Shown one piece after another: positions 3 to 12,368 of a stretch of 64,000 bases of DNA. The translations under genes and the position numbers were made by a program. Origin of the DNA: Thermodesulfobacteriota bacterium (GTDB lineage: Bacteria; Desulfobacterota; Desulfarculia; JACQYL01); assembly GCA_963675595.2 (NCBI GenBank), contig CAXXLZ010000002.1, positions 3,584,001 through 3,648,000 of the forward strand, given 5' to 3'. Positions within the stretch are counted from its first letter, which is position 1. Each line of letters starts with the position of its first letter. Below the pieces are notes generated by a model, which saw only the letters and a list, made by a program, of their open reading frames with translations, ran no database searches and had not been told where the DNA came from.

Positions 3-1544
3 CCCATGATCACGGTGGAAGGTACCATCAAGACGGACGGAGGTACGCCCTTACTCGGGGTGGTCGTCAACTATGCCGGAACGGGCGGAGCCGGGTCCGC
101 CGGCGTCGATATCCAAGGCAAATACTCCTTTCAGGTGCTTTCCGGCTGGAGTGGAACCGCCACGCCGTCTCTCAGCGGCTATACCTTCAGTCCCGCATCC
201 AGGACATACACCGGTCAGACCACCGATGTGACCAACCACGACTACACGGCATACGTGCAAACCGTGACCATTTCAGGCTCCGTTACTTTCGGGGGCGCGG
301 GGCTGGGCTCGGTGACAATGACCGTAAGCGACGTGGGAACCGTTTCGACCGACGCATCCGGTTCCTATAATGCGGATGTTCCCATCGGGTGGACCGGAAC
401 GGTCACTCCTTCTCTGGTCGGTTATTTCTTTATGCCGGCATCGAAAAGCTACACTTCCGTGGCTTCCTCCCAAACAAACCAGGATTTCAGCGCGTTTGCG
501 GCCCCGCCTCCCATGATTACCGTGTCCGGAACGATCCTTGAAACGGGAACGGGAAACCCGGTGAACGGAGTCGACATCGACTACAGCGGAGTAGGGGGCG
601 CGGGAACGGCCGTAACGGATCCTCAAGGGGAATACTCATTCCAGGTTCTATCCGGATGGAGCGGAACCGCCACGCCTTCCCATTCGAGATATTCCTTCTA
701 TCCGCCGACAAGGATGTACAACAAGGAAACCACCGATCAATCGAACCATGATTACTTGGCGACGCCCACCATCGTGAGCATCGTGGGGGAGATCACCACA
801 AGCACGGGGACGCCCATTCCCGGAGTGAACGTGAACTACGGCGGCGACGGCATCACCGGCGTCGTGGCCACCGGGGGCGTGGGGCAATACTCCTTCGACG
901 TTCCTTACGGCTGGAGCGGTACGGCCACACCCTCGTACGGCAGCTACTCCTTTTCCCCGACTTCCAGGTCCTATACGTCCGTGCCGTCCGATCAATTCAA
1001 TCAGAACTACACGGGAACCCAGTCGCTTCCCCAGACCGTGTCCGTATCGGGTACCATTACTTATTTCGGAGACTACCTCGGCGGCGTCGCGGTAGCCTTC
1101 AGCGGCGTCGGACAGACTACGACGGATGCGTTCGGGCATTTCGTCATGGAAGTTCCCTACCTGTGGAGCGGCACGGCGACACCGTCCCTCGAAGGCTACA
1201 CTTTTTCGCCGGAGTACATGGACTTTGCCAATGTGTCGGCGGACCTCCAGGGGCAAAACTTCACGGCGTCTCAAGCCGAGCCTCAGAGCGTAGTCCTTTC
1301 CGGAATCATAACAGGTCCGGAAGTGGGCGCACCCGCTCCGAACATAACCGTATCCTTTTCGGGGCAGGGGTCCGTAATAACGGATGAGGATGGGTACTAC
1401 CAAAAAGAAGTGCCCGCGTCTTGGAGCGGTTCCGTCACTCCTTCCTATTCGGGATATGGATTCGATCCTCCTTCGTATGAATTCGACGTCGTATCTTCGG
1501 ACCAATGGGGCCTTGACTTTTCGGCCTATCTGGATTGGTTCTGA
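3..1544 (+). CDS. Repeat-rich cell-surface protein, 5'-truncated by the window edge (six ~85-aa beta-rich repeats, carboxypeptidase-regulatory/prealbumin-like)
   Basis: Six repeats of xTVSG...G.YSF.V..GWSGTATPS..GY.F.P...Y. The first MITV follows a Pro codon, mirroring the internal linker PPPMITV, so the gene probably begins upstream. Confidence 0.75.
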   Translation, partial: PMITVEGTIKTDGGTPLLGVVVNYAGTGGAGSAGVDIQGKYSFQVLSGWSGTATPSLSGYTFSPASRTYTGQTTDVTNHDYTAYVQTVTISGSVTFGGAGLGSVTMTVSDVGTVSTDASGSYNADVPIGWTGTVTPSLVGYFFMPASKSYTSVASSQTNQDFSAFAAPPPMITVSGTILETGTGNPVNGVDIDYSGVGGAGTAVTDPQGEYSFQVLSGWSGTATPSHSRYSFYPPTRMYNKETTDQSNHDYLATPTIVSIVGEITTSTGTPIPGVNVNYGGDGITGVVATGGVGQYSFDVPYGWSGTATPSYGSYSFSPTSRSYTSVPSDQFNQNYTGTQSLPQTVSVSGTITYFGDYLGGVAVAFSGVGQTTTDAFGHFVMEVPYLWSGTATPSLEGYTFSPEYMDFANVSADLQGQNFTASQAEPQSVVLSGIITGPEVGAPAPNITVSFSGQGSVITDEDGYYQKEVPASWSGSVTPSYSGYGFDPPSYEFDVVSSDQWGLDFSAYLDWF

Positions 1545-1701
1545 TCGCGTTTTTCCTTCCTGAGGCGCAGCCCGGGTGAGACCCGCACCCGGGCCGCGTG
1601 CGGGATTGATTCATTCGCGACCTGAGATCATTCCGCATCGGCTTCGGACGAATCCGGTCGTAACTCCTTCTTCTGGGGACGTCTCTCCCGCAACATAGTT
1701 C

Positions 1702-1729
1702 TTGACAATTCCGAAGGCAGGAATATACT
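1702..1729 (+). promoter_or_regulatory. Putative sigma70 promoter of the yceD-rpmF-plsX operon
   Basis: TTGACA-16 nt-TATACT. Confidence 0.6.
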
Positions 1730-1770
1730 CAAACTTTTTATCCTCATCGATGTTTCCTGTTGAGGACGGA

Positions 1771-2289
1771 ATGATCATACAGACCGCCAACTTCCCGGAT
1801 GAAGGGCTTGAATTCGACATTGACGAGCCGTCCGATTGGGGAGGTCGAGGTTTTGCCCACGGCCCCGTGAGGGGGCGCGTCCGCGTAGATCGTTCCGGAG
1901 ATTACTTCATGATCCGCGGGGAGGTCCGGACCTCGGTACCCGTTTGTTGCGTGCGGTGCCTTGCGGATTGCCTTGCCGAAGTCAACGCCGACATTTACGC
2001 CGTGCTTGTTTCCGCCGCCCTGATGAAGGCGGCGACACACGATAACTTGGAGTTGACCGCCGAAGATCTGGATGTTGTTACTTACGAAGACGATGAATTT
2101 GATACCGATCCGATCATTGAAGACCAGATATTGCTCTCAATTCCCGAGAATCCTCTTTGCTCGGATGAATGTGCCGGTCTTTGCCCGAAATGCGGCGTCA
2201 ACCGGAACTTGACGCAATGCGAATGCGGACCCGATGAAACAAGCGGCTCTTTCGGCGTGCTGGCCGGTTTTCGGCCGATGAAGTCCTGA
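1771..2289 (+). CDS. yceD: DUF177/YceD family protein
   Basis: CxRC and [14 protein letters not shown] motifs; directly upstream of rpmF; ATG 1771 preceded by GAGGA. Confidence 0.9.
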
Positions 2290-2323
2290 GAGTATCGGGA
2301 TCAAACAGATTTGGAGATTCCCC

Positions 2324-2500
2324 ATGGCCGTACCCAAACGAAGAAAATCGAAATCGAAGAAGAACATGCGGCGTTCGCATGATCACTTGAGCGCACCCGG
2401 AATTTCCTTGTGCGCCCAATGTGCCGAACCGAAGCTCCCCCACCGCGCGTGTCCCAGTTGTGGGAACTACCGCGGAAGGACTTTCATCGAGACGGAGTAG
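2324..2500 (+). CDS. rpmF: 50S ribosomal protein L32 (zinc-ribbon type); absent from the ORF track
   Basis: Manual translation [22 protein letters not shown]...CAQC...[13 protein letters not shown]; GGAG RBS. Confidence 0.97.
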
Positions 2501-2549
2501 AATTGCAGACGGTTTCCCGCCCGTTTTTCCGCCCGTTCGATGAAAACCG

Positions 2550-3608
2550 GTGAGTCTCACCATGAATCGGGCTGAGTTCCGCATCGCCGTCGACGCGATG
2601 GGAGGCGATTTCGCCCCCGCGGCCCCGGTTGAGGGAGCTGTGTGGGCTGCTCGGGATTTTGGTCAGCCCGTCATCCTCGTCGGCCGACAAAAAGTGGTGG
2701 AAGCCGAGCTGAAGGCCCTCCAAGGGGTTCCCTCTTCCCTGATCGAGATTCACGACGCTCCCGAAGTGGTTGAAATGGACGAGCCTGCCGCCGCGGCGTT
2801 CAAGAAGAAGAAAGGCGCCTCGATCCGGGTGGCCTTCGACTTGGTGAAGCAGGGAAAGGCGCAAGGGGTTGTCAGCGCGGGTAACTCCGGCGCCATCATG
2901 GCGGCGGCCGCATTGGTGTTGGGGCGCACCAAGGGAGTCGACCGCCCGGCCATCGCAGGCATCCTACCGACACTCGAGGGACCCACCGTGCTCATAGACG
3001 TGGGTGCCAACGTGAACTGCAAACCCCACAACCTCTTTCAATTCGGAATGATGGGTGATATCTACGCCCGGAGTATTCTCCAGTTGAAAGACCCCGCGGT
3101 CGCCCTGTTGAGTGTGGGGGAAGAAAGCATCAAAGGCAACGATCTCGTCAAGCGGGTTCACGAGTTACTGCGGAACGCGGACATCAATTTTGTAGGTAAT
3201 GTGGAAGGCAGGGACATTTTCACGGGCAAAACCCAAGTAATTATCTGTGACGGCTTCGTCGGCAATGTCTGCCTCAAATTGGCCGAAGGCATCGGCCAAG
3301 CCTTCGGGCGGATGGTCAAAAAAGAAGTGCGGAAAGGCATCCTGAGCAGTATGGGATTCCTCTTCGCCCGAGGAGCGTTCAATAGAATCGGTTCGAGAAT
3401 GGATTATGCGGAACACGGCGGTGCTCCGCTATTGGGTGTGAACGGCGCCTGCGTGGTATGCCACGGAGCCTCCTCCTCCAAGGCCGTCAAGAACGCCGTC
3501 CGGGTCGCTTCGGAACTGATTCGGAATCGAGTCAACGAGCATTTGACCCGAGGTTTGCAACTCTTCGCTGAAAAGCACCCCGAGGGGACGGCTGAACGGA
3601 GCCGGTAA
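2550..3608 (+). CDS. plsX: Phosphate acyltransferase PlsX
   Basis: IAVDAMGGD, SAGNSGA, DVGAN, CDGFVGN, GAPLLG; start may be ATG 2562. Confidence 0.97.
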   Translation: MSLTMNRAEFRIAVDAMGGDFAPAAPVEGAVWAARDFGQPVILVGRQKVVEAELKALQGVPSSLIEIHDAPEVVEMDEPAAAAFKKKKGASIRVAFDLVKQGKAQGVVSAGNSGAIMAAAALVLGRTKGVDRPAIAGILPTLEGPTVLIDVGANVNCKPHNLFQFGMMGDIYARSILQLKDPAVALLSVGEESIKGNDLVKRVHELLRNADINFVGNVEGRDIFTGKTQVIICDGFVGNVCLKLAEGIGQAFGRMVKKEVRKGILSSMGFLFARGAFNRIGSRMDYAEHGGAPLLGVNGACVVCHGASSSKAVKNAVRVASELIRNRVNEHLTRGLQLFAEKHPEGTAERSR

Positions 3609-3621
3609 TTAGGAGCGCCTC

Positions 3622-4779
3622 ATGGACTATTTCCTGACGGAAGAACAGTTGACCATACGGGACTTGGCGAGGCAGATCGCCGAGTCTAGAATCGTGCCTT
3701 CCCGCGCCGAACTGGACGAGAAGAGCGAATTTCCTCATGAGATCATGAAGGACTTGGCGCAATCGGATCTTTTCGGAATCACCATTCCTGAGGAGTTCGG
3801 CGGTCTGGGGCTGGGATGCATGGAGAACTGCGTGGCCGTTGAGGAAATCAGCCGCGGCTGCTGCGGAGTGGCCACCACTTTCGCCGCGAGCGGACTTGGG
3901 GCCTACCCGATTATTCTGCACGGAAGCGAGGAGCAGAAGAAGAAATACCTGCCGCGTATCGCCTCAGGCGAGTCGTTGGCCGCTTTCGCTCTGACTGAAT
4001 CCACCGCCGGCAGCGACGCGGGCGGTATTATGACGACCGCCGTTCTCGATGGCGATGAATACGTGCTCAACGGTTCGAAGCAGTGGATTACCAACGGAGG
4101 CGAGGCCGACATCTATTCCGTTTTCGTGGTGACGGACAAAGCCAAAGGAGCCCGCGGGGCCACCGCCCTGATCGTGGAAAAGAGCGATCCCGGATTCAGT
4201 TTCGGCAAGAAGGAAGACAAAATGGGAATCCGGGCTTCCGTGACCCGGGAACTCATTTTTGATAACTGTCGTATCCCCAAAGACCGTATTATCCGCAAGC
4301 AGGGAGCCGGTTTCCTCGTTGCCATGAAGACCTTCGATCATTCGCGGCCGGGCGTGGGAGCCCAAGCGGTGGGCGTGGCTCAGGCGGCCCTCGACGAAGC
4401 CGTGAAGTACGCCAAGACTCGAGTTCAGTTCGAGGTTCCCATCATCAGTTTTCAGGCGGTACAACATATGCTGGCGGATATGGCCACGTCCGTTGAAGCC
4501 GCGCGTGCTCTGGTATACTGTGTGGCCAGAAGCATGGATGCCGGTGCGGGCGACACTTCGAAGGTCAGCGCCATGGCCAAGCTGTTTCCCACGGAAATGG
4601 CGATGAAGGTGACCACGGATGCGGTTCAGATACTGGGCGGTTGCGGCTACATGAGAGAGTATCCCGTGGAAAAAATGATGCGGGATGCCAAGATTCTCCA
4701 GATTTACGAAGGAACCAATCAGATTCAGCGGAACGTCATTGGACAAGCACTGAACAAGGAATACACCCGCAAGGGTTAG
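3622..4779 (+). CDS. Acyl-CoA dehydrogenase (butyryl-CoA dehydrogenase-like)
   Basis: FALTE..AGSD, LNGSKQWITNG, KMGIRAS, QILGG.GY, IYEGTNQIQR. Confidence 0.93.
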   Translation: MDYFLTEEQLTIRDLARQIAESRIVPSRAELDEKSEFPHEIMKDLAQSDLFGITIPEEFGGLGLGCMENCVAVEEISRGCCGVATTFAASGLGAYPIILHGSEEQKKKYLPRIASGESLAAFALTESTAGSDAGGIMTTAVLDGDEYVLNGSKQWITNGGEADIYSVFVVTDKAKGARGATALIVEKSDPGFSFGKKEDKMGIRASVTRELIFDNCRIPKDRIIRKQGAGFLVAMKTFDHSRPGVGAQAVGVAQAALDEAVKYAKTRVQFEVPIISFQAVQHMLADMATSVEAARALVYCVARSMDAGAGDTSKVSAMAKLFPTEMAMKVTTDAVQILGGCGYMREYPVEKMMRDAKILQIYEGTNQIQRNVIGQALNKEYTRKG

Positions 4780-4789
4780 GTCGCTTCTC

Positions 4790-5584
4790 ATGAATCTAGT
4801 CGTCTGCGTCAAACAGGTTCCCGACGCCAAAAATATTCGCATCGACCCGGTGACGAACACTCTTCAGCGGCAAGGAGTGGAAAGCATCGTCAATCCGTTT
4901 GATTTGTACGCCCTTGAGGCGGGACTTCGTCTGCGGGATGAATTCGGGGGCAAACTGACCGTGATCTCCATGGGGCCGCCTCAAGCCGAGAGCGTCCTCA
5001 GGGAAGCCCTCTCCTACGGGGCCGATGAGGCGGTACTGCTCAGCGACCGTGCTTTCGCCGGAGCCGATACATTGGCGACCGCCAAGACCCTGGCCGCGTG
5101 TGTGCGTCGATTAAGCCCCTTCGATTTAGTGATCTGCGGAAAGCAGGCCGTCGACGGGGACACGGCCCAGGTCGGTCCCGCCCTGGCTCAATCCCTCGAT
5201 ATCCCTCATGTGGCCTTTGTCGGAACCATGGAAGGCGTTGAAGCGGGTTGCCTCACGGTGCAACGTATGATGGACGACGGTTATGACACGGTCGCCGTGG
5301 AACTGCCCGCTCTGATCACCGTGGTCAAAGAAATCGGAGAGCCCAGGGTTCCTTCCTTCAAAGGGAAGATGCGGGCCAAGAAGCAGCCGGTGCCCGTTTG
5401 GGGCCTCAAAGAACTGGACCTTGCGGAAGACCAAGTGGGGCTCAAAGGCTCAGCCACGTGGGTTGAACGCATCTTTGCTCCCGAGCCGCGAGGAAGACGG
5501 GAAATCCTTGACGGCGACCCGGATACACAGGCGGCGAATCTCCTGAAGCGCCTGAAAGAGGACCAGGTCGTCAAACTCGCCTGA
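4790..5584 (+). CDS. etfB: Electron transfer flavoprotein beta subunit (bifurcating-type motifs)
   Basis: VCVKQVPD, NPFD, SMGPP, FAGADT, GKQAVDGDTAQVG. Confidence 0.95.
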   Translation: MNLVVCVKQVPDAKNIRIDPVTNTLQRQGVESIVNPFDLYALEAGLRLRDEFGGKLTVISMGPPQAESVLREALSYGADEAVLLSDRAFAGADTLATAKTLAACVRRLSPFDLVICGKQAVDGDTAQVGPALAQSLDIPHVAFVGTMEGVEAGCLTVQRMMDDGYDTVAVELPALITVVKEIGEPRVPSFKGKMRAKKQPVPVWGLKELDLAEDQVGLKGSATWVERIFAPEPRGRREILDGDPDTQAANLLKRLKEDQVVKLA

Positions 5585-5642
5585 CCGGACTTTTCGCCCG
5601 TCTTGACCCCGGAATCGCTTGTTTGGAAGGAGCGCGGGATGC

Positions 5643-5671
5643 TTGACACCGGATTTTCGGGCATGTAATAG
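5643..5671 (+). promoter_or_regulatory. Putative internal sigma70 promoter between etfB and etfA
   Basis: TTGACA-17 nt-TAATAG. Confidence 0.45.
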
Positions 5672-5728
5672 AGCGACCTTGACTTTTCCGCTCGGAGCGA
5701 GAACACCAAGAAACCAAGCGCTGAAACG

Positions 5729-6922
5729 ATGAGTATCGGCATAGATCGTGACAAATGCACGGCGTGTGGCGCCTGTGTGGATGCCTGCCCCTTCGGGGTC
5801 ATGGAAATCGTCGGTGAGACGGCCGTCGTAGGGGACGGCTGTACGCTGTGCGGGGCCTGTGAAGAGGCCTGTGCCTTCGAGGCGATCACCATTGTCCGCA
5901 AGACGGGCTCGAGTGAGGCTGCGGCGGCTTATCAAGGCGTGTGGGTGTTCGCCGAGTACAGAGGCGGCAATATCGCGGGGGTCGCCTTCGAGCTTTTGGG
6001 CGAAGGGCGGAAGCTTGCCGAAAAACTGGGGCAGGAACTGAGCGCCGTGATTCTGGGCGGCTGCCTTGACGGTGCGGCGGAGGAACTTGTCGCCCACGGC
6101 GCCGACCGGGTTTTCGTATTCGACCATCCCGACCTTCTTCATTTCCAGGAAGCTACCTACAGCCGGACCATCGCCGGACTCGTCCGTGAACGAAAGCCCG
6201 CCGTCTTGTTGCTGGGGGCGACGGCCATCGGCCGATCTCTCGCTCCGGGAATCGCGGCTTTGCTGGACACCGGTCTCACCGCGGACTGCACGGAGCTGGA
6301 CATTCGTCCGGAAGATCAGGCGCTGCTTCAGACCCGCCCCGCTTTCGGCGGGAACATCATGGCGACCATCGTTTGTGCGGACCGGAGACCGCAGATGGCC
6401 ACGGTGAGGCCCAAGGTGATGAAACGGGCTTCAAGAATCGAAGGTCACCGGGGCGAAATCATTTCCATGGATTTGCCGTCTGAAGCCGTCGACCGGCGCA
6501 TCCGCGTTCTCGGCACGGTGGCGCAACAAGGCGATCTGGTGAATTTGGCCGAGGCGGACGTGATTGTGGCCGGCGGCAGGGGGATTCAGGAGGAAAAGAA
6601 TTTCGCCTTGCTCAAGGAGTTGGCGGACCTCCTCAACGGTTGTGTGGCCGCCACGCGAGGTGCGGTGGACGCGGGTTGGATCGATTATGCTCATCAGGTG
6701 GGTCAGACCGGCCGAACGGTGAGCCCCAAGTTGTATATTGCCTGCGGCGTTTCAGGCGCGGTCCAACATTTGGTGGGTATGCAGTCTTCCGACGTCATCG
6801 TGGCGATCAACAAGGATCCGGAAGCGCCTATATTCAGCGTGGCCGACTACGGCATTGTGGGCGATCTTTTCGAAATCGTGCCCAAACTCATCCAGCAAAT
6901 AAAGAACTCCTTGGGACAATAA
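5729..6922 (+). CDS. etfA: Electron transfer flavoprotein alpha subunit with N-terminal 2[4Fe-4S] ferredoxin domain
   Basis: CxxCxxCxxxCP and CxxCxxCxxxC; GLTADC, TRPAFGGN, QVGQTG, GVSGAVQH. Confidence 0.95.
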   Translation: MSIGIDRDKCTACGACVDACPFGVMEIVGETAVVGDGCTLCGACEEACAFEAITIVRKTGSSEAAAAYQGVWVFAEYRGGNIAGVAFELLGEGRKLAEKLGQELSAVILGGCLDGAAEELVAHGADRVFVFDHPDLLHFQEATYSRTIAGLVRERKPAVLLLGATAIGRSLAPGIAALLDTGLTADCTELDIRPEDQALLQTRPAFGGNIMATIVCADRRPQMATVRPKVMKRASRIEGHRGEIISMDLPSEAVDRRIRVLGTVAQQGDLVNLAEADVIVAGGRGIQEEKNFALLKELADLLNGCVAATRGAVDAGWIDYAHQVGQTGRTVSPKLYIACGVSGAVQHLVGMQSSDVIVAINKDPEAPIFSVADYGIVGDLFEIVPKLIQQIKNSLGQ

Positions 6923-6962
6923 GTCTTCCCGGTTCCCAATTACCCGCACAGGAGAACATGTC

Positions 6963-7706
6963 TTGGAAGCCACGAATCGAGTTATGCTGATCACGGGGGG
7001 CTCTCGAGGGATCGGCCGCGCCGTCGCCCTGAAATTGGCCCGTCCCGGGGACATTTTGTTGCTCAATCATTATGATAAGGACGACGAGGCGGCTCGAGCC
7101 ACCGCCGCCGAGATCGAACAGCTTGGAGCCTCGGCCCGACTCTATTATTTTAACGTGGGCGACTTCGCGGAAGTCGAACGGTTTGTGGGTGAGATGGTCG
7201 CGGAATTCGGCGGCATCCACGTTCTGGTCAACAATGCGGGTATCACCATGGATGCCATGTTCATTCGGATGAAAGAGGAACAATGGGACCGGGTGATCGA
7301 TGTGAATCTCAAAGGCGTATTCAATTGCACCCAGGCGGTCAGCCGTGCCATGATCAAGCAGAGACACGGGAAGATCGTGAGCATTTCCTCCGTGGTGGGC
7401 GCCATTGGAAATGTCGGGCAGGCGAACTACTCGGCCTCCAAAGCCGGGATCATGGGCTTCACGAAATCCGTGGCGAAGGAACTCGCGTCGCGAAATGTCA
7501 ATGTCAACGCAGTGGCTCCCGGATTCATAGACACCGAGATGACGGCGGTGATCCCTGATAAGATCAAAGAAGGCTTTCTTCGCAACGTTCCGATGAACCG
7601 CATGGGAACGCCGGAGGAAGTGGCCGAGGTGGTGGAGTTTCTGTGTTCGGATCGGGCTCGTTACGTTACAGGCCAGATCATTCATGTCAACGGGGGCATG
7701 TACTGA
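6963..7706 (+). CDS. fabG: 3-oxoacyl-ACP reductase
   Basis: TGGSRGIG, NNAGIT, YSASK, VAPGFI; adjacent to acpP; TTG start. Confidence 0.93.
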   Translation: MEATNRVMLITGGSRGIGRAVALKLARPGDILLLNHYDKDDEAARATAAEIEQLGASARLYYFNVGDFAEVERFVGEMVAEFGGIHVLVNNAGITMDAMFIRMKEEQWDRVIDVNLKGVFNCTQAVSRAMIKQRHGKIVSISSVVGAIGNVGQANYSASKAGIMGFTKSVAKELASRNVNVNAVAPGFIDTEMTAVIPDKIKEGFLRNVPMNRMGTPEEVAEVVEFLCSDRARYVTGQIIHVNGGMY

Positions 7707-7813
7707 TCCGTCTCTTGGAGACGAGTCGGACCGCACCTTGAATTAGTTTGAGCCGAATCGGACACCATCTTGTCCGGGAATTGGATAAACAACATCATTG
7801 GGGGGGAAAAATA

Positions 7814-8050
7814 ATGGCGTCTTACGCGGAAAAAGTTAAGCAGATCATCAGTGATCAGCTGGGAGTGGACCTTGCGGACGTTGTCGAGGAAGCGTCCTTC
7901 GTAGACGACCTGGGTGCCGACTCTCTGGACCTGGTCGAACTGATCATGGCCATGGAAGAGGCTTTCAACGTGGAAATCGCCGATGAGGAGGCTGAGACGA
8001 TTCGAACGGTGAAAGACGCGGTCAGTTATATAGAAAATCACCATCCATAA
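7814..8050 (+). CDS. acpP: Acyl carrier protein
   Basis: DLGADSLD phosphopantetheine motif; ATG 7814. Confidence 0.97.
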
Positions 8051-8067
8051 GAAAAGGACGAACACTG

Positions 8068-9309
8068 GTGTCCAGAAGAGTCGTCATCACGGGCTATGGC
8101 GTGGTTACCCCTCTAGGAAACAACACCGAGGATACTTGGCGTAATCTGATTGCGGGAAACAGCGGCGTCGGCCAAATCACCCTTTTCGAGACCAAAGGGT
8201 TCCGGACCACCATCGGGGCGGAGGTGAAAAACTTCAATCCCGATGATTATCTGGATAAGAAATCCGTCCGCCGTCTTGACCGCTTCATCCATCTCGCCAT
8301 AGCGGCTTCGGACATGGCCGTAACGGATGCGGGGCTGGACATGTCCGAGGTGAACCCCGAAAGGGTCGGGACGTACGTGGGAACCGGACTGGGAGGGTTG
8401 AATTCGATCGAGCATTACCACGCCGTGCTGAAAGAGGCGGGACCGAACAAGATCAATCCTTTCTTCATTCCCATGCTTATCGGTAACATGGCGCCGGGAC
8501 AGATTTCCATCCGGCACGGAACCAAAGGCCCCAACCTGTGCGTTTCCACGGCATGCGCCGCCGGCTCCCATGCCGTGGGTGAATCCTTGAAGCTCATTCA
8601 GGCGGGCATGGCCGACGTGATGATCTGCGGCGGCAGCGAAGCGGTGATTACCCCTTTGGGGCTCGGCGGGTTCTGCGCCATGCGGGCGCTGTCCGAACGG
8701 AACGATGCGCCCGAAAAGGCTTCCCGGCCGTTCGAGAAGAACCGCGACGGGTTCATCATGGGGGAAGGCAGCGGAATCGTGGTGATCGAAACCCTGGACC
8801 ATGCCAAGGCTCGGGGAGCCAAGATTCGGGCCGAGCTCATCGGGTACGGTCTGTCGAGTGATGCCTACCATATGACCGCTCCCGCCCCGGGAGGGACCGG
8901 CGCGGCCCGTTGCATGGAAATGGCTTTAAAGACCGCGGGAATCCGACCGGAAGAAGTGGACTACATCAACGCGCACGGCACTTCCACGGACCTCAACGAC
9001 GTTTCCGAATACCAGGCCATTCGGACGGTTTTCGGTGATCACACGGATCGAATGCCCGTGAGTTCCACCAAATCCATGACCGGCCATCTGTTGGGAGCCG
9101 CCGGAGGGGTGGAGTCCGTTGTCTCCGTGCTCGTAATGGAGCGAGAAATCATCCCGCCGACGATCAATTACGAGGAGCCGGATCCGGAGATTTCGCTGGA
9201 TGTGGTGCCCAATGAAGCCAGGACCGCAACCGTCGACGTAGTCATGAGCAACTCCTTCGGATTTGGAGGCACCAACGCCAGCTTGATCTTTAAGCGTTGG
9301 GCCGAATAG
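8068..9309 (+). CDS. fabF: Beta-ketoacyl-ACP synthase II
   Basis: TACAAG, NAHGTST, KSMTGHLLGAAG, SNSFGFGG. Confidence 0.96.
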   Translation: MSRRVVITGYGVVTPLGNNTEDTWRNLIAGNSGVGQITLFETKGFRTTIGAEVKNFNPDDYLDKKSVRRLDRFIHLAIAASDMAVTDAGLDMSEVNPERVGTYVGTGLGGLNSIEHYHAVLKEAGPNKINPFFIPMLIGNMAPGQISIRHGTKGPNLCVSTACAAGSHAVGESLKLIQAGMADVMICGGSEAVITPLGLGGFCAMRALSERNDAPEKASRPFEKNRDGFIMGEGSGIVVIETLDHAKARGAKIRAELIGYGLSSDAYHMTAPAPGGTGAARCMEMALKTAGIRPEEVDYINAHGTSTDLNDVSEYQAIRTVFGDHTDRMPVSSTKSMTGHLLGAAGGVESVVSVLVMEREIIPPTINYEEPDPEISLDVVPNEARTATVDVVMSNSFGFGGTNASLIFKRWAE

Positions 9310-9398
9310 TGTCGCAGTCACCGTCTGCGTAGAGTGCCCCTCCTGCGGGAATAGAATCCGCCAAGAGATGGGGGCGAACGGAAAGAAGCTCCAAAGTC

Positions 9399-10643
9399 AT
9401 GAAACATCTTAGACAGACCGATCCCGAAGTCGCCGAAGCCATTGAATTGGAAATCCGGCGGCAAAGCGAAAAGCTGGTCCTCATCGCGTCCGAGAACTAC
9501 GTCAGTCCCGCCGTGGCCGAAGCACTGGGTTCCGTGCTGACCAACAAGTATGCCGAAGGATATCCGGGCCACCGGTACTACGGAGGATGCGAGCACGTCG
9601 ATCAGGTGGAGACCCTGGCCATCGAAAGGCTCAAGAGCCTTTTCGGCGCGGATCACGCCAATGTCCAGCCTCACGCCGGTTCCCAGGCGAACATGGGGGT
9701 TTACTTTTCCGTACTGAAGCAGGGTGACACCATACTGGGGATGGACCTCTCCCACGGAGGGCATTTGACCCACGGGAGTCCCGTCAATTTCTCGGGTCGG
9801 CTGTTCAATACGGTGTTTTACGGCGTGGATCGCAACTCGTTCACCATCGACATGGACCAGGTGGAGTCCCAGGCCAAGACGCATCGCCCGGCTTTGATCA
9901 TTGCCGGAGGTAGTTCCTATCCCAGGCTGATCGATTTCGAGGGCTTTTCCCGAATCGCTCGAGAGGTGGGAGCCGTGTTCATGGTGGACATGGCTCATTT
10001 CGCGGGACTCGTAGCCGGAGGAGTCTTTCCGTCTCCCGTGCCCCATGCGGATTTCGTGACCTCGACCACGCATAAAACCCTCAGGGGCCCCCGTGGAGGC
10101 TTCATCCTGTCCACCGGAGAATATGCCAAGAAACTGGACCGATACCTCTTTCCGGGCATGCAGGGCGGTCCTCTGATGCATGTCATCGCCGCCAAAGCGG
10201 TGGCATTCAAAGAGGCTCTGCAACCGGAATTCAGCGATTATGCGCGGCAGATCGTGACCAATGCCCAAGTGATGGCGGCTCGGCTTTCCGAGCGCGGCAT
10301 CGATGTCGTGTCCGGGGGCACCGACTGCCACCTGATGTTGGTGGACCTTTCCAACGTGAACTTGACGGGAGCCAAAGCCGAAGAGGTATTGGATGAGGCG
10401 GGCATCACTCTGAACAAGAACGTCATTCCGTTTGAAAAGAGGAGTCCCAACGAAACAAGCGGCATACGGATCGGTACGCCGGCGGTCACCACGAGGGGAA
10501 TGAAGGAAGGCGAAATGCGTTGGATCGCGGACAGAATCGTGGACGTGCTGTCTAATCCCGATGATCAGGCCCTGGTGGATCGGACACGGGAAGAGGTCAG
10601 GCACCTGTGCGAGAAATTCCCGGTTTTCGGGACGGGAGATTGA
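9399..10643 (+). CDS. glyA: Serine hydroxymethyltransferase
   Basis: [33 protein letters not shown]. Confidence 0.98.
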
Positions 10644-10798
10644 TACCGGACGTTATCTGAACGCCCCCTCCTTCAGGCTCGGCAGCTTCCGAAAAGTCCT
10701 TCGGCGTTCCCGCCGAAGGCGGACCCCCTCCTCGGAGCCGGTTCTACGTTAGGTCCAAGCAATGAAATCTCTGTCCTTATTGATGGAGAATCCCCGAC

Positions 10799-11290
10799 GT
10801 GAAATGTCCATTTTGCGGTTCTCTCGAAAACAAAGTGATCGACTCCAGGCTCAGCAAGGAAGGAGCCGCCATACGTCGTAGGCGTGATTGCACGGAGTGC
10901 GGACGCCGGTTCACCACTTATGAGCGGGTGGAAGAAATCCTCCCCATGGTGATCAAGAAAGACAATCGTCGGGAGCCGTACAACAGGGAAAAGGTCCACG
11001 AAGGGATCAAGAAGGCATTGCAGAAAAGGCCGGTCAGCGTGGATGCCGTCATGGCCTTTCTGGACGATCTGGAACGGAGCTTTCAGGAAAGTCAGAAAAA
11101 GGAAATCCCCAGTAAGGAGATCGGCGAAAGAGTGATCCAGCAGCTCAAGGAATGGGACGAGGTGGCCTATGTACGCTTCGCCTCGGTGTACCGGCAGTTC
11201 TCAGACACTGCGGAATTCATGTCCGAGCTGGAGCAACTCATTCTGGATCGTAAGAAGAAAGCCGAGGAGCGTGAGCCGGAAGACGGATGA
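10799..11290 (+). CDS. nrdR: Transcriptional repressor NrdR
   Basis: MKCPFC...DSR...RRRR.C..C..RFTTYE; ATP cone; VAYVRFASVY. Confidence 0.97.
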   Translation: MKCPFCGSLENKVIDSRLSKEGAAIRRRRDCTECGRRFTTYERVEEILPMVIKKDNRREPYNREKVHEGIKKALQKRPVSVDAVMAFLDDLERSFQESQKKEIPSKEIGERVIQQLKEWDEVAYVRFASVYRQFSDTAEFMSELEQLILDRKKKAEEREPEDG

Positions 11291-12368
11291 AGCGTATATG
11301 GCGATGGCTCTTCGCCTGGCCATGAAGGGCTGGGGCCGCACTTCGCCCAACCCCTTGGTCGGAGCCGTTGTGGTGCGCGACGATCAGGTGGTGGGGAAAG
11401 GGTTTCATCCCAAGGCCGGGGAACCCCACGCCGAGAGGATCGCTCTGGAACGAGCCGGCTCTCAAGCACGGGGAGGGACGCTTTACGTTACGCTTGAGCC
11501 GTGTAATCATTACGGTCGGACGCCTCCTTGCACGGAGGCCGTGCTGGCGAGTGGGGTACGCCGGGTAGTCATCGGGCAGACCGACCCCAATCCGGAAGTG
11601 GCGGGCGGAGGCGCTCAACGGCTTCGGGAGGCGGGTATCCAGGTGGAGATCGGCGTCCTGGAAGCACGCTGTCGGCGCCTCAACGAAGCCTTCAATTTCT
11701 TTGTGACCCGGAAACGACCGTTTATCGCCCTCAAGCTGGCTGCGACACTGGACGGAAAGACCGCCACCAAGACGGGGGACTCCCGTTGGATCACCAACGA
11801 ACGTTCCCGAAACTTCGTTCATCGTCTTCGGGGCGGCATGGACTCAATCATGGTGGGCATGGGTACGGTTCGCGCCGACGACCCACAGCTGACCTGCCGA
11901 TGGAAAAATGGCCGCGATCCTTTGCGTGTGGTGGTGGACGGCTCTCTTTCCTTGACCCCGGACCGGAAGATATTCAATCCCGATTCCGAGGCGGGGCTGT
12001 TGGTTTTCACGGGAGTTGCGGCGGATCCCGAAAAGGCGGCCGTGCTGGAAGCCTCGGGAGCCGAGGTTGTCCGTGTCGAAATCGAAAACGGATTTGTGGA
12101 CCTGAAGGCCGTCTTCTCGACGCTGGCCGAGCGTCGCATTCTCTCCGTGCTCATCGAAGGAGGGGGGACGCTGGCGGCGTCGGCGCTTAGGGCCGGGTTG
12201 GTGGATCGCCTTTATTTTTTTTACGCGCCGAAAATCATCGGGGGCAACGGAGCTCCGGGAATGATCGGGGATCTGGGGATCGAGACCATGGCCGAGTGCC
12301 TTCGAATCAAAGATACGAGACTACGTCGGTTCGGAGAAGACTTCATGGTGGAAGTGTCCATCTCCTAA
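11271..12368 (+). CDS. ribD: Bifunctional riboflavin deaminase/reductase RibD
   Basis: PNPLVG, HAE, TLEPC..GRTPPC, EGGG; GTG 11271 after GAGGAG. Confidence 0.96.
   Translation: MSRKTDEAYMAMALRLAMKGWGRTSPNPLVGAVVVRDDQVVGKGFHPKAGEPHAERIALERAGSQARGGTLYVTLEPCNHYGRTPPCTEAVLASGVRRVVIGQTDPNPEVAGGGAQRLREAGIQVEIGVLEARCRRLNEAFNFFVTRKRPFIALKLAATLDGKTATKTGDSRWITNERSRNFVHRLRGGMDSIMVGMGTVRADDPQLTCRWKNGRDPLRVVVDGSLSLTPDRKIFNPDSEAGLLVFTGVAADPEKAAVLEASGAEVVRVEIENGFVDLKAVFSTLAERRILSVLIEGGGTLAASALRAGLVDRLYFFYAPKIIGGNGAPGMIGDLGIETMAECLRIKDTRLRRFGEDFMVEVSIS

Follow-up and report, generated by a model that had tools for sequence, protein, structure and literature searches.

A flavoprotein module in a fatty-acid operon

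The stretch of DNA analysed here (the window) comprises 64,000 nucleotides of contig CAXXLZ010000002.1 from a Thermodesulfobacteriota bacterium, and it carries a type II fatty-acid synthesis (fab) operon in which a three-gene flavoprotein module is embedded. The module encodes an enzyme of the acyl-CoA dehydrogenase (ACAD) family, named Acd here, and the two subunits of an electron-transferring flavoprotein, EtfB and EtfA. We examined it as a candidate enoyl-ACP reductase (ACP, acyl carrier protein). From the open reading frames (ORFs) and their Pfam and NCBIfam matches, the order on the + strand is yceD-rpmF-plsX-acd-etfB-etfA-fabG-acpP-fabF, followed by glyA (Table 1). A previous sequence-only reading of the window had given the order from plsX to fabF, with gaps of 13 nt between plsX and acd and 10 nt between acd and etfB, and the ORF coordinates and family scans agree with it. 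It had also described the window as free of fabH, fabD and enoyl reductase genes. Pfam scans of 14 and 38 ORFs likewise revealed no homolog of any of these inside the window, and the sole match there to adh_short_C2, a family of short-chain dehydrogenases/reductases (SDRs), is FabG.

The subunits of the module belong to the ACAD and ETF families and show no homology to FabI, FabL, FabK or FabV in Pfam or NCBIfam. Acd matches PF02771, PF02770 and PF00441, the three ACAD domains. Among solved structures it comes closest to 3PFD (417 bits) and to the butyryl-CoA dehydrogenase (Bcd) of C. difficile (5OL2_C, 402 bits); 4L1F scores 386 bits. The best curated model, from NCBIfam, is that of the acryloyl-CoA reductase AcrC, which Acd matches with 459 bits, under the cut-off of 640. 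The glutamate of a YEGT motif (E363), which we take to be the catalytic base, is invariant in 29 orthologs. Nineteen positions separate the Acd orthologs from the paralogs of this genome, including R28, K175, K197, Q154, W155 and H282.

The best solved relative of EtfB is CarD (6FAH_B, 243 bits), and the motif DGDTAQVG is visible in the alignment. EtfA aligns over its full length with CarE (6FAH_A, 424 bits), starting at residue 1 and including the ferredoxin domain, and the same alignment shows RPAFGG and two CxxCxxCxxxC motifs. Both Etf motifs and the 2[4Fe-4S] ferredoxin fused to EtfA had been noticed in the sequence-only reading, and they are borne out by the structure alignments and by Fer4 matches in Pfam. 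We take DGDTAQVG in EtfB and RPAFGG in EtfA to mark bifurcating Etfs. PMC10553843 states that a bifurcating-Etf motif exists. Of 37 fab-linked loci, 36 have DGDTAQVG in EtfB and 36 have RPAFGG in EtfA, and in all 37 EtfA carries the ferredoxin domain with two CxxCxxCxxxC motifs. The Etf scores lie below the equivalog cut-offs (EtfB, 233 vs 475 for NF042971 and 306 vs 445 for NF040731; EtfA, 374 vs 600). By sequence, Acd-EtfAB belongs with the bifurcating ACAD/Etf complexes, yet it stays under the equivalog cut-offs for acryloyl-CoA reductase.

Some details of the operon deserve mention. The customary opening gene of the rpmF-plsX-fab cluster is yceD, and a sigma-70-like site matching 11 of 12 positions lies at 1702–1729, as a consensus match only. 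The name rpmF is our own reading of the translation, as this ORF is below the length of the ORF list and outside the family scans. The ORF of acpP is open from a TTG at 7748. Its likely start is the ATG at 7814, and the NF002148 alignment begins at residue 24 of the long ORF. The DSL site of AcpP is invariant across 24 orthologs. An untranslated gap of 144 nt (5585–5728) separates etfB from etfA, the adjoining junctions measuring 10–40 nt, and a terminator scan found no terminator-like site in this gap. Over 1500–10800 there are 10 terminator-like sites against 10.3 expected, which is neutral on a single operon. Elsewhere the window holds housekeeping genes, among them nrdR, nusB, leuS, lptE, priA, def, fmt and a riboflavin operon.

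Table 1. Genes and domains of the operon, in window coordinates
Feature	Product or description	Position	Strand	Support
yceD	DUF177, 23S rRNA accumulation protein	1702..2289	+	PF02620, 83 bits
rpmF (putative name)	ribosomal protein L32, 58 codons	2324..2500	+	translation read from DNA
plsX	phosphate acyltransferase	2550..3608	+	TIGR00182, 361 bits vs cut-off 243; PF02504, 366 bits
acd	acyl-CoA-dehydrogenase-family flavoenzyme	3622..4779	+	three Acyl-CoA_dh domains
etfB	small Etf subunit, two-FAD (bifurcating) type	4790..5584	+	PF01012
etfA	large Etf subunit	5729..6922	+	PF01012, PF00766; Fer4 families on residues 3-60
etfA, N-terminal domain	fused 2[4Fe-4S] ferredoxin domain	~5729-5920	+	
fabG	3-oxoacyl-ACP reductase	6963..7706	+	TIGR01830, 337 bits vs cut-off 298
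acpP	acyl carrier protein	7814..8050	+	NF002148, 116 bits vs cut-off 71
fabF	beta-ketoacyl-ACP synthase II	8068..9309	+	TIGR03150, 648 bits vs cut-off 494
glyA		9399-10643	+	

The module in related genomes

A scan with Acd, taking one genome per species, yielded 586 relatives. The best 80 (65–75% identity) were kept, and the window proteins were mapped onto them. Acd adjoins fab genes in 52 of these 80 loci, and the usual order is yceD-plsX-fabH-acd-etfB-etfA-(fabD)-fabG-acpP-fabF(-glyA). Variants of this order have acd without adjoining etf genes (L059, L065, L066, L071, L097) or acd directly after fabF (L074, L079, L095, L104). The 52 loci are labelled as Desulfobulbales and further "Deltaproteobacteria", a cable bacterium among them, as Nitrospirota/Thermodesulfovibrionia and as further phyla, namely Margulisiibacteriota/Saganbacteria, Omnitrophota, Ratteibacteria and Edwardsbacteria. 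The place of the module beside fab genes is conserved across several phyla. No thiolase, hydroxyacyl-CoA dehydrogenase (hbd) or crotonase gene was found beside acd in any locus examined.

The module had been described as sitting where fabH and fabD normally lie. That it lies inside the fab operon is upheld; that it replaces these genes is not, as relatives have it between fabH and fabD or fabG. In relatives the module is an addition to fabH and fabD, and in this genome fabH and fabD have moved elsewhere.

The phylum sample consisted of 251 genomes at least 90% complete, this one included. With a threshold of E≤1e-130, an Acd ortholog (57–76% identity) occurs exactly once in 124 of the 251, and its presence runs along family lines. 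Among the 123 other carriers, 62 were checked for the position of the gene, and in 50 of them Acd and fabF share a strand and are no more than approximately 6 kb apart. Five of the 12 misses are probable contig breaks; the others are four genomes of one family (f7) and three of another (f27). With 52 of 80 loci adjoining fab genes and 50 of 62 phylum genomes holding Acd near fabF, the arrangement is far beyond chance. EtfA at E≤1e-90 was found in 31 of 40 carriers and in 8 of 40 non-carriers checked (out of 123 and 127, respectively). Of 16 genomes checked in which Acd lacks an adjoining Etf, 14 encode a full-length, ferredoxin-fused EtfA elsewhere.

In a quick tree, the fab-linked and non-fab Acd orthologs form one clade (SH-aLRT 99) apart from 12 paralogs of this genome. 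The branching within the clade roughly tracks taxonomy in the same tree. By these measures Acd is a distinct single-copy ortholog. Of the 16 further ACAD homologs encoded in this genome, none exceeds 51% identity to the fab-linked Acd. The gene for the closest of them (51% identity; C2:1072265-1073422, − strand) contains one in-frame TGA, which could mark a pseudogene, stem from an error in sequencing or encode selenocysteine. In a loose first look, 13 carriers had a single ACAD-like candidate genome-wide, which argues against a role in β-oxidation.

Three loci have individual features. In L043 an insertion of approximately 3 kb (9165-12126), with an ORF carrying a SEC-C motif and ORFs of no known family, separates acd from etfB. 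In L058 an ORF with a PIN domain and its small partner, resembling a toxin–antitoxin pair, lie between etfB and etfA (10039-11182). In L090, a metagenome-assembled genome labelled Bacillota, acd-etfB-etfA stands directly 3′ of lpxK-kdsB-kdsA-kdsC-kdsD, genes of lipid A/KDO synthesis (3011-11384, + strand). This last arrangement ties the module to envelope lipid synthesis even outside the fab operon.

Enoyl reductases and the shared operon slot

The host genome (6.79 Mb, 3 contigs, 98% complete) holds FabD, FabH, FabG, FabZ, FabF and ACP. FabH (371 bits, cut-off 292) is encoded approximately 790 kb from the window, adjoining a tRNA synthetase gene, and FabD (304 bits against 261) 20 kb upstream of the window, adjoining 2-oxoacid:ferredoxin oxidoreductase genes. 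FabZ scores 184 bits (cut-off 155). The module had also been thought a possible source of primers for a FabH-less initiation. That idea falls because fabH and fabD exist elsewhere in the genome, both above cut-off; in most relatives, fabH is also found directly upstream of acd.

No normal enoyl-ACP reductase was found in this 98% complete genome in searches for FabI, FabK, FabL and FabV. For FabI, tblastn with the E. coli protein gave 69 bits and 25% identity at best, and model NF005938 matched nothing at 1e-25. No FabI model appeared among the 25 best NCBIfam families for 16 of the 18 adh_short_C2 matches, the scan leaving out the FabG of the window and a 28-bit match in a 630-residue frame. 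The best match to the FabK model TIGR03151 has 24.9 bits. The nitronate monooxygenase (NMO) family PF03060, used below as the wider family of FabK, gave 33 bits at best over a partial model, and nothing at 1e-25. Neither PF12241 nor NF010177 detected FabV. Both models were also silent on control genomes; NF010177 later matched one genome of the phylum (G186) with 585 bits, so the blank in this genome is meaningful. FabL is absent above its cut-off, the best match having 208 bits against 328.

The SDR behind that 208-bit match fits other SDR families better. A second FabL-like SDR of 178 bits sits in a specialised lipid locus of this genome (L107, C2:3376000-3392000). This locus encodes, in order, a lipid-A-type acyltransferase, an ABC exporter, a divergent ketosynthase, a FabG-like SDR, a small ORF that matches FabZ weakly (76 bits), a ketosynthase, an ORF of no known family, the FabL-like SDR and a second lipid-A-type acyltransferase.

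Known enoyl reductases were then counted in the 123 other carriers of Acd and in the 127 non-carriers. FabI was taken as at least 200 bits on the FabI model; E. coli FabI scores 205–414 bits on the other FabI models. By this measure FabI is present in 2/123 carriers vs 35/127 non-carriers, a strong anticorrelation among genomes that are related and not independent. FabK above the TIGR03151 cut-off occurs in no carrier and in 4 non-carriers. As a proxy for FabK, TIGR03151 at E≤1e-35 proved too strict, as it missed full-length NMO proteins in G073, G107 and G286; the NMO counts were therefore redone with PF03060 (E≤1e-25), giving 77/123 carriers and 100/127 non-carriers. The 11 genomes with FabL above cut-off comprise 9 carriers and 2 non-carriers. 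A divergent FabI-like family, which matches FabI models only, at 165–180 bits and below every cut-off, is present in 8 carriers and 3 non-carriers, and FabV in 1 carrier and no non-carrier. None of FabI, FabI-like, FabL, FabV and NMO was found in 37 of the 123 carriers, plus this genome, and in 16 of the 127 non-carriers.

The position of the known reductases in non-carriers is instructive. FabF was located in 76 of the 127 non-carriers, 20 regions were fetched, and 3 were chosen for a known reductase near FabF. These three operons read plsX-fabH-FabI-fabD-fabG-acpP-fabF (G053, L129), plsX-fabH-FabK-fabD-fabG-acpP-fabF-glyA (G072; FabK with 502 bits, above cut-off) and plsX-NMO-fabD-fabG-acpP-fabF-glyA (G052), the last two being loci L128 and L127. 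The position of FabI or FabK in these relatives, between plsX/fabH and fabD, is that of the Acd-Etf module in carriers. No other single argument for an enoyl reductase role is as strong as this shared slot. The other 17 regions came from genomes without a reductase match at that stage; where the contig extends far enough, they are fab operons without a reductase gene.

One of these 17 genomes, G122, has no known reductase, and the strict threshold yields no Acd ortholog in it. A divergent ACAD gene, its product 39% identical to the Acd of the window, lies there directly upstream of fabG-acpP-fabF-glyA (L119, 10565-11692, − strand).

Proposed role and its alternatives

Taking these comparisons together, we lean slightly towards Acd, EtfB and the ferredoxin-fused EtfA forming the enoyl-ACP reductase of the type II fatty-acid synthase of this organism. 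An energy-conserving reductase of this kind had been suggested from the window alone. The lack of a known reductase, the synteny, the operon slot and the anticorrelation with FabI support it, while the co-occurrence of other reductases in many carriers does not. We infer that the substrate is an ACP thioester, that the reaction runs in the reductive direction and that the electrons are bifurcated. The module would be co-expressed with plsX, fabG, acpP and fabF. The bifurcating FAD on EtfB would be reduced by NADH, as in Bcd-EtfAB and CarCDE. One electron would then take the uphill path, by way of the [4Fe-4S] clusters of EtfA, to ferredoxin, and the other the downhill path, by way of the EtfA flavin, to the flavin of Acd, where trans-2-enoyl-ACP would be reduced to acyl-ACP. 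The net reaction would be 2 NADH + enoyl-ACP + oxidised ferredoxin → acyl-ACP + 2 NAD+ + reduced ferredoxin. The potential of the enoyl/acyl couple is near −10 mV, that of NADH −320 mV and that of ferredoxin below −400 mV, and the energetic rationale rests on these general values. Part of the drop in free energy of enoyl reduction would thus be kept as a low-potential reductant, for Rnf or for biosynthesis. RnfC is encoded in this genome (340 bits against a cut-off of 246), so Rnf would be available to use the reduced ferredoxin.

CarCDE, the caffeyl-CoA reductase-Etf complex of Acetobacterium woodii (6FAH), likewise combines an ACAD with a two-FAD Etf, and its Etf subunits are the relatives of EtfB and EtfA described above, the 2[4Fe-4S] domain included. 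Its dehydrogenase is less close, as Acd is nearer to butyryl-CoA dehydrogenases than to CarC (402 vs 312 bits). CarCDE also serves phenylacrylate respiration, whereas the context here is fatty-acid synthesis and the proposed substrate an ACP thioester. The Bcd-EtfAB complexes of Clostridioides difficile (5OL2) and Acidaminococcus fermentans (4KPU/4L1F/4L2I) share the ACAD family, DGDTAQVG and RPAFGG with the module. The proposed chemistry, NADH-dependent reduction of an enoyl thioester coupled to reduction of ferredoxin, is the same. In contrast to them, the Acd orthologs form a clade of their own, lie in the core fab operon and lack butyrate-pathway neighbours, and the EtfA of the window has a ferredoxin domain that is missing from the large subunits of 5OL2 and 4KPU over the aligned ranges.

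With FabI and FabL (SDRs), FabK (NMO family, FMN) and FabV the module would share its product, and with FabI and FabK its operon slot. Unlike all of these it would be a three-subunit, oxygen-sensitive and energy-conserving enzyme with flavin and Fe-S centers and with ferredoxin as a second acceptor. A precedent for carrier-protein substrates in the ACAD fold is given by the prolyl-peptidyl carrier protein dehydrogenases RedW and PigA and the acyl-ACP dehydrogenase MbtN. These enzymes are oxidative and work without a bifurcating Etf, and Acd scores far under their cut-offs (RedW, 269 vs 650; PigA, 237 vs 500; MbtN, 57 vs 700). We found no description of an ACAD/Etf enoyl-ACP reductase, or of organisms lacking all four known reductases, in the open-access literature. 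The passages of PMC4916218 and PMC10553843 that we consulted do not link Etf to fatty-acid synthesis.

Several observations weigh against an enoyl-ACP reductase. NMO, FabL or FabI-like genes accompany Acd in over half of the carriers, and even FabI and FabV coexist with it in the few genomes counted above. Two loci (L049 and L080) combine acd-etfBA and an NMO gene in one operon, the NMO gene standing between acpP and fabF. Kinship among the genomes, which are not independent, makes the phyletic contrasts look more significant than they are. An EtfA at E≤1e-90 is missing from 9 of the 40 carriers checked, and the fab-linked EtfA proteins of G116, G147 and G208 align only from residues 61–66, without the ferredoxin domain. 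In 28 of the 80 related loci the Acd ortholog lies outside fab operons or at a contig end: it stands alone (16 Nitrospirota-labelled loci; unrelated neighbours in L033), forms the acd-etfBA trio, or is cut by the contig end. Families f7 and f27 also hold it outside fab operons. Finally, the closest solved and curated relatives of Acd all act on CoA thioesters.

A divergent SDR, or another enoyl-ACP reductase that our searches do not recognise, could be the housekeeping enzyme, with Acd-EtfAB as an accessory, condition-specific or side-branch lipid enzyme. This we consider unlikely. The 16 non-carriers (genomes 90–100% complete) in which every known reductase searched is missing (G064, G066, G071, G080, G082, G112, G117, G122, G125, G148, G172, G209, G217, G239, G244, G284) speak for it. 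One of them, G064, has neither an ACAD homolog (E≤1e-40) nor a full-length NMO gene, and its fab operon (L110) is without a reductase. Together they imply that an unrecognised reductase exists in the phylum, which could also serve here. The two FabL-like SDRs of this genome and the reductase genes in most carriers point the same way. However, both SDRs are far under the cut-off of 328; the 208-bit SDR has better matches among other SDR families, and the 178-bit SDR belongs to the ketosynthase-ketosynthase-SDR-acyltransferase cluster. The near exclusion of FabI by Acd also stands against it. So does G137, the one carrier examined for this point (labelled Desulfobulbus), where the genes for FabL and NMO have unrelated neighbours and acd-etfBA stands in the core operon. 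The divergent FabI-like SDR of G137 lies in a cluster of its own (L136, 5125-12218, + strand), behind a FabG-like SDR and a FabA-like dehydratase and before a gene resembling β-ketoacyl-ACP synthase III, an α/β hydrolase, an AMP-binding enzyme and a 3-beta-HSD-family reductase. This order resembles that of oleABCD olefin synthesis, here with elongation enzymes of its own.

It is rather improbable that the module works in the opposite direction and oxidises acyl-ACP, either as a backtracking dehydrogenase for anaerobic unsaturated fatty acids, by the logic of FabX, or in another modification of the acyl chain, with electrons leaving through Etf. FabX-type dehydrogenase/isomerases are NMO-family proteins with FMN and [4Fe-4S], and Acd is not an NMO homolog. 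No FabA was found in this genome, and there is no NMO/FabX-family gene at the threshold used, so its anaerobic route to unsaturated fatty acids is not accounted for; such a gap would leave room for an oxidative module. The operons with both NMO and the module would also suit two functions. This direction, however, leaves the near exclusion of FabI and the slot shared with FabI and FabK unexplained, and it would deprive this genome and 37 carriers of any reductase. To judge from known redox potentials, oxidation of an acyl thioester by NAD+ would in addition need an input of reduced ferredoxin.

Quite as improbable is an ordinary CoA-level Bcd/EtfAB for short acyl-CoA primers, fermentation or β-oxidation that stands in the fab operon by co-regulation or accident: the CoA-acting relatives, the presence of FabH as a user of acyl-CoA primers and the orthologs outside fab operons favour it, but the module has no thiolase, hbd or crotonase neighbours, is single-copy, well conserved and family-consistent (and the only ACAD candidate in 13 carriers), keeps its operon position across several phyla, and has housekeeping neighbours where the trio lies outside fab operons, as in L090.

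Enoyl reduction is the most exergonic step in each cycle of fatty-acid elongation, and to our knowledge all known enoyl-ACP reductases waste its energy. If Acd-EtfAB is indeed the enoyl-ACP reductase, a known enzyme type would have found a new use, and flavin-based bifurcation by an Etf would for the first time serve anabolism at the level of ACP. It is possible, at somewhat short of an even chance, that many strict anaerobes in at least five to six phyla possess in this module a fifth, unrelated class of enoyl-ACP reductase, which bifurcates and yields one reduced ferredoxin per enoyl reduction. Such a class would be insensitive to FabI-directed (triclosan-type) and FabK inhibitors. It would supply the "missing FabI" in the metabolic reconstructions drawn up for many uncultured anaerobes, and the lipid hydrogen-isotope signatures of these organisms would have to be read differently. 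Anaerobes limited in energy, for instance sulfate reducers, cable bacteria, Thermodesulfovibrionia and candidate phyla, would regain reduced ferredoxin from lipid synthesis, and the making of membrane lipids would give energy back rather than only consume NAD(P)H.

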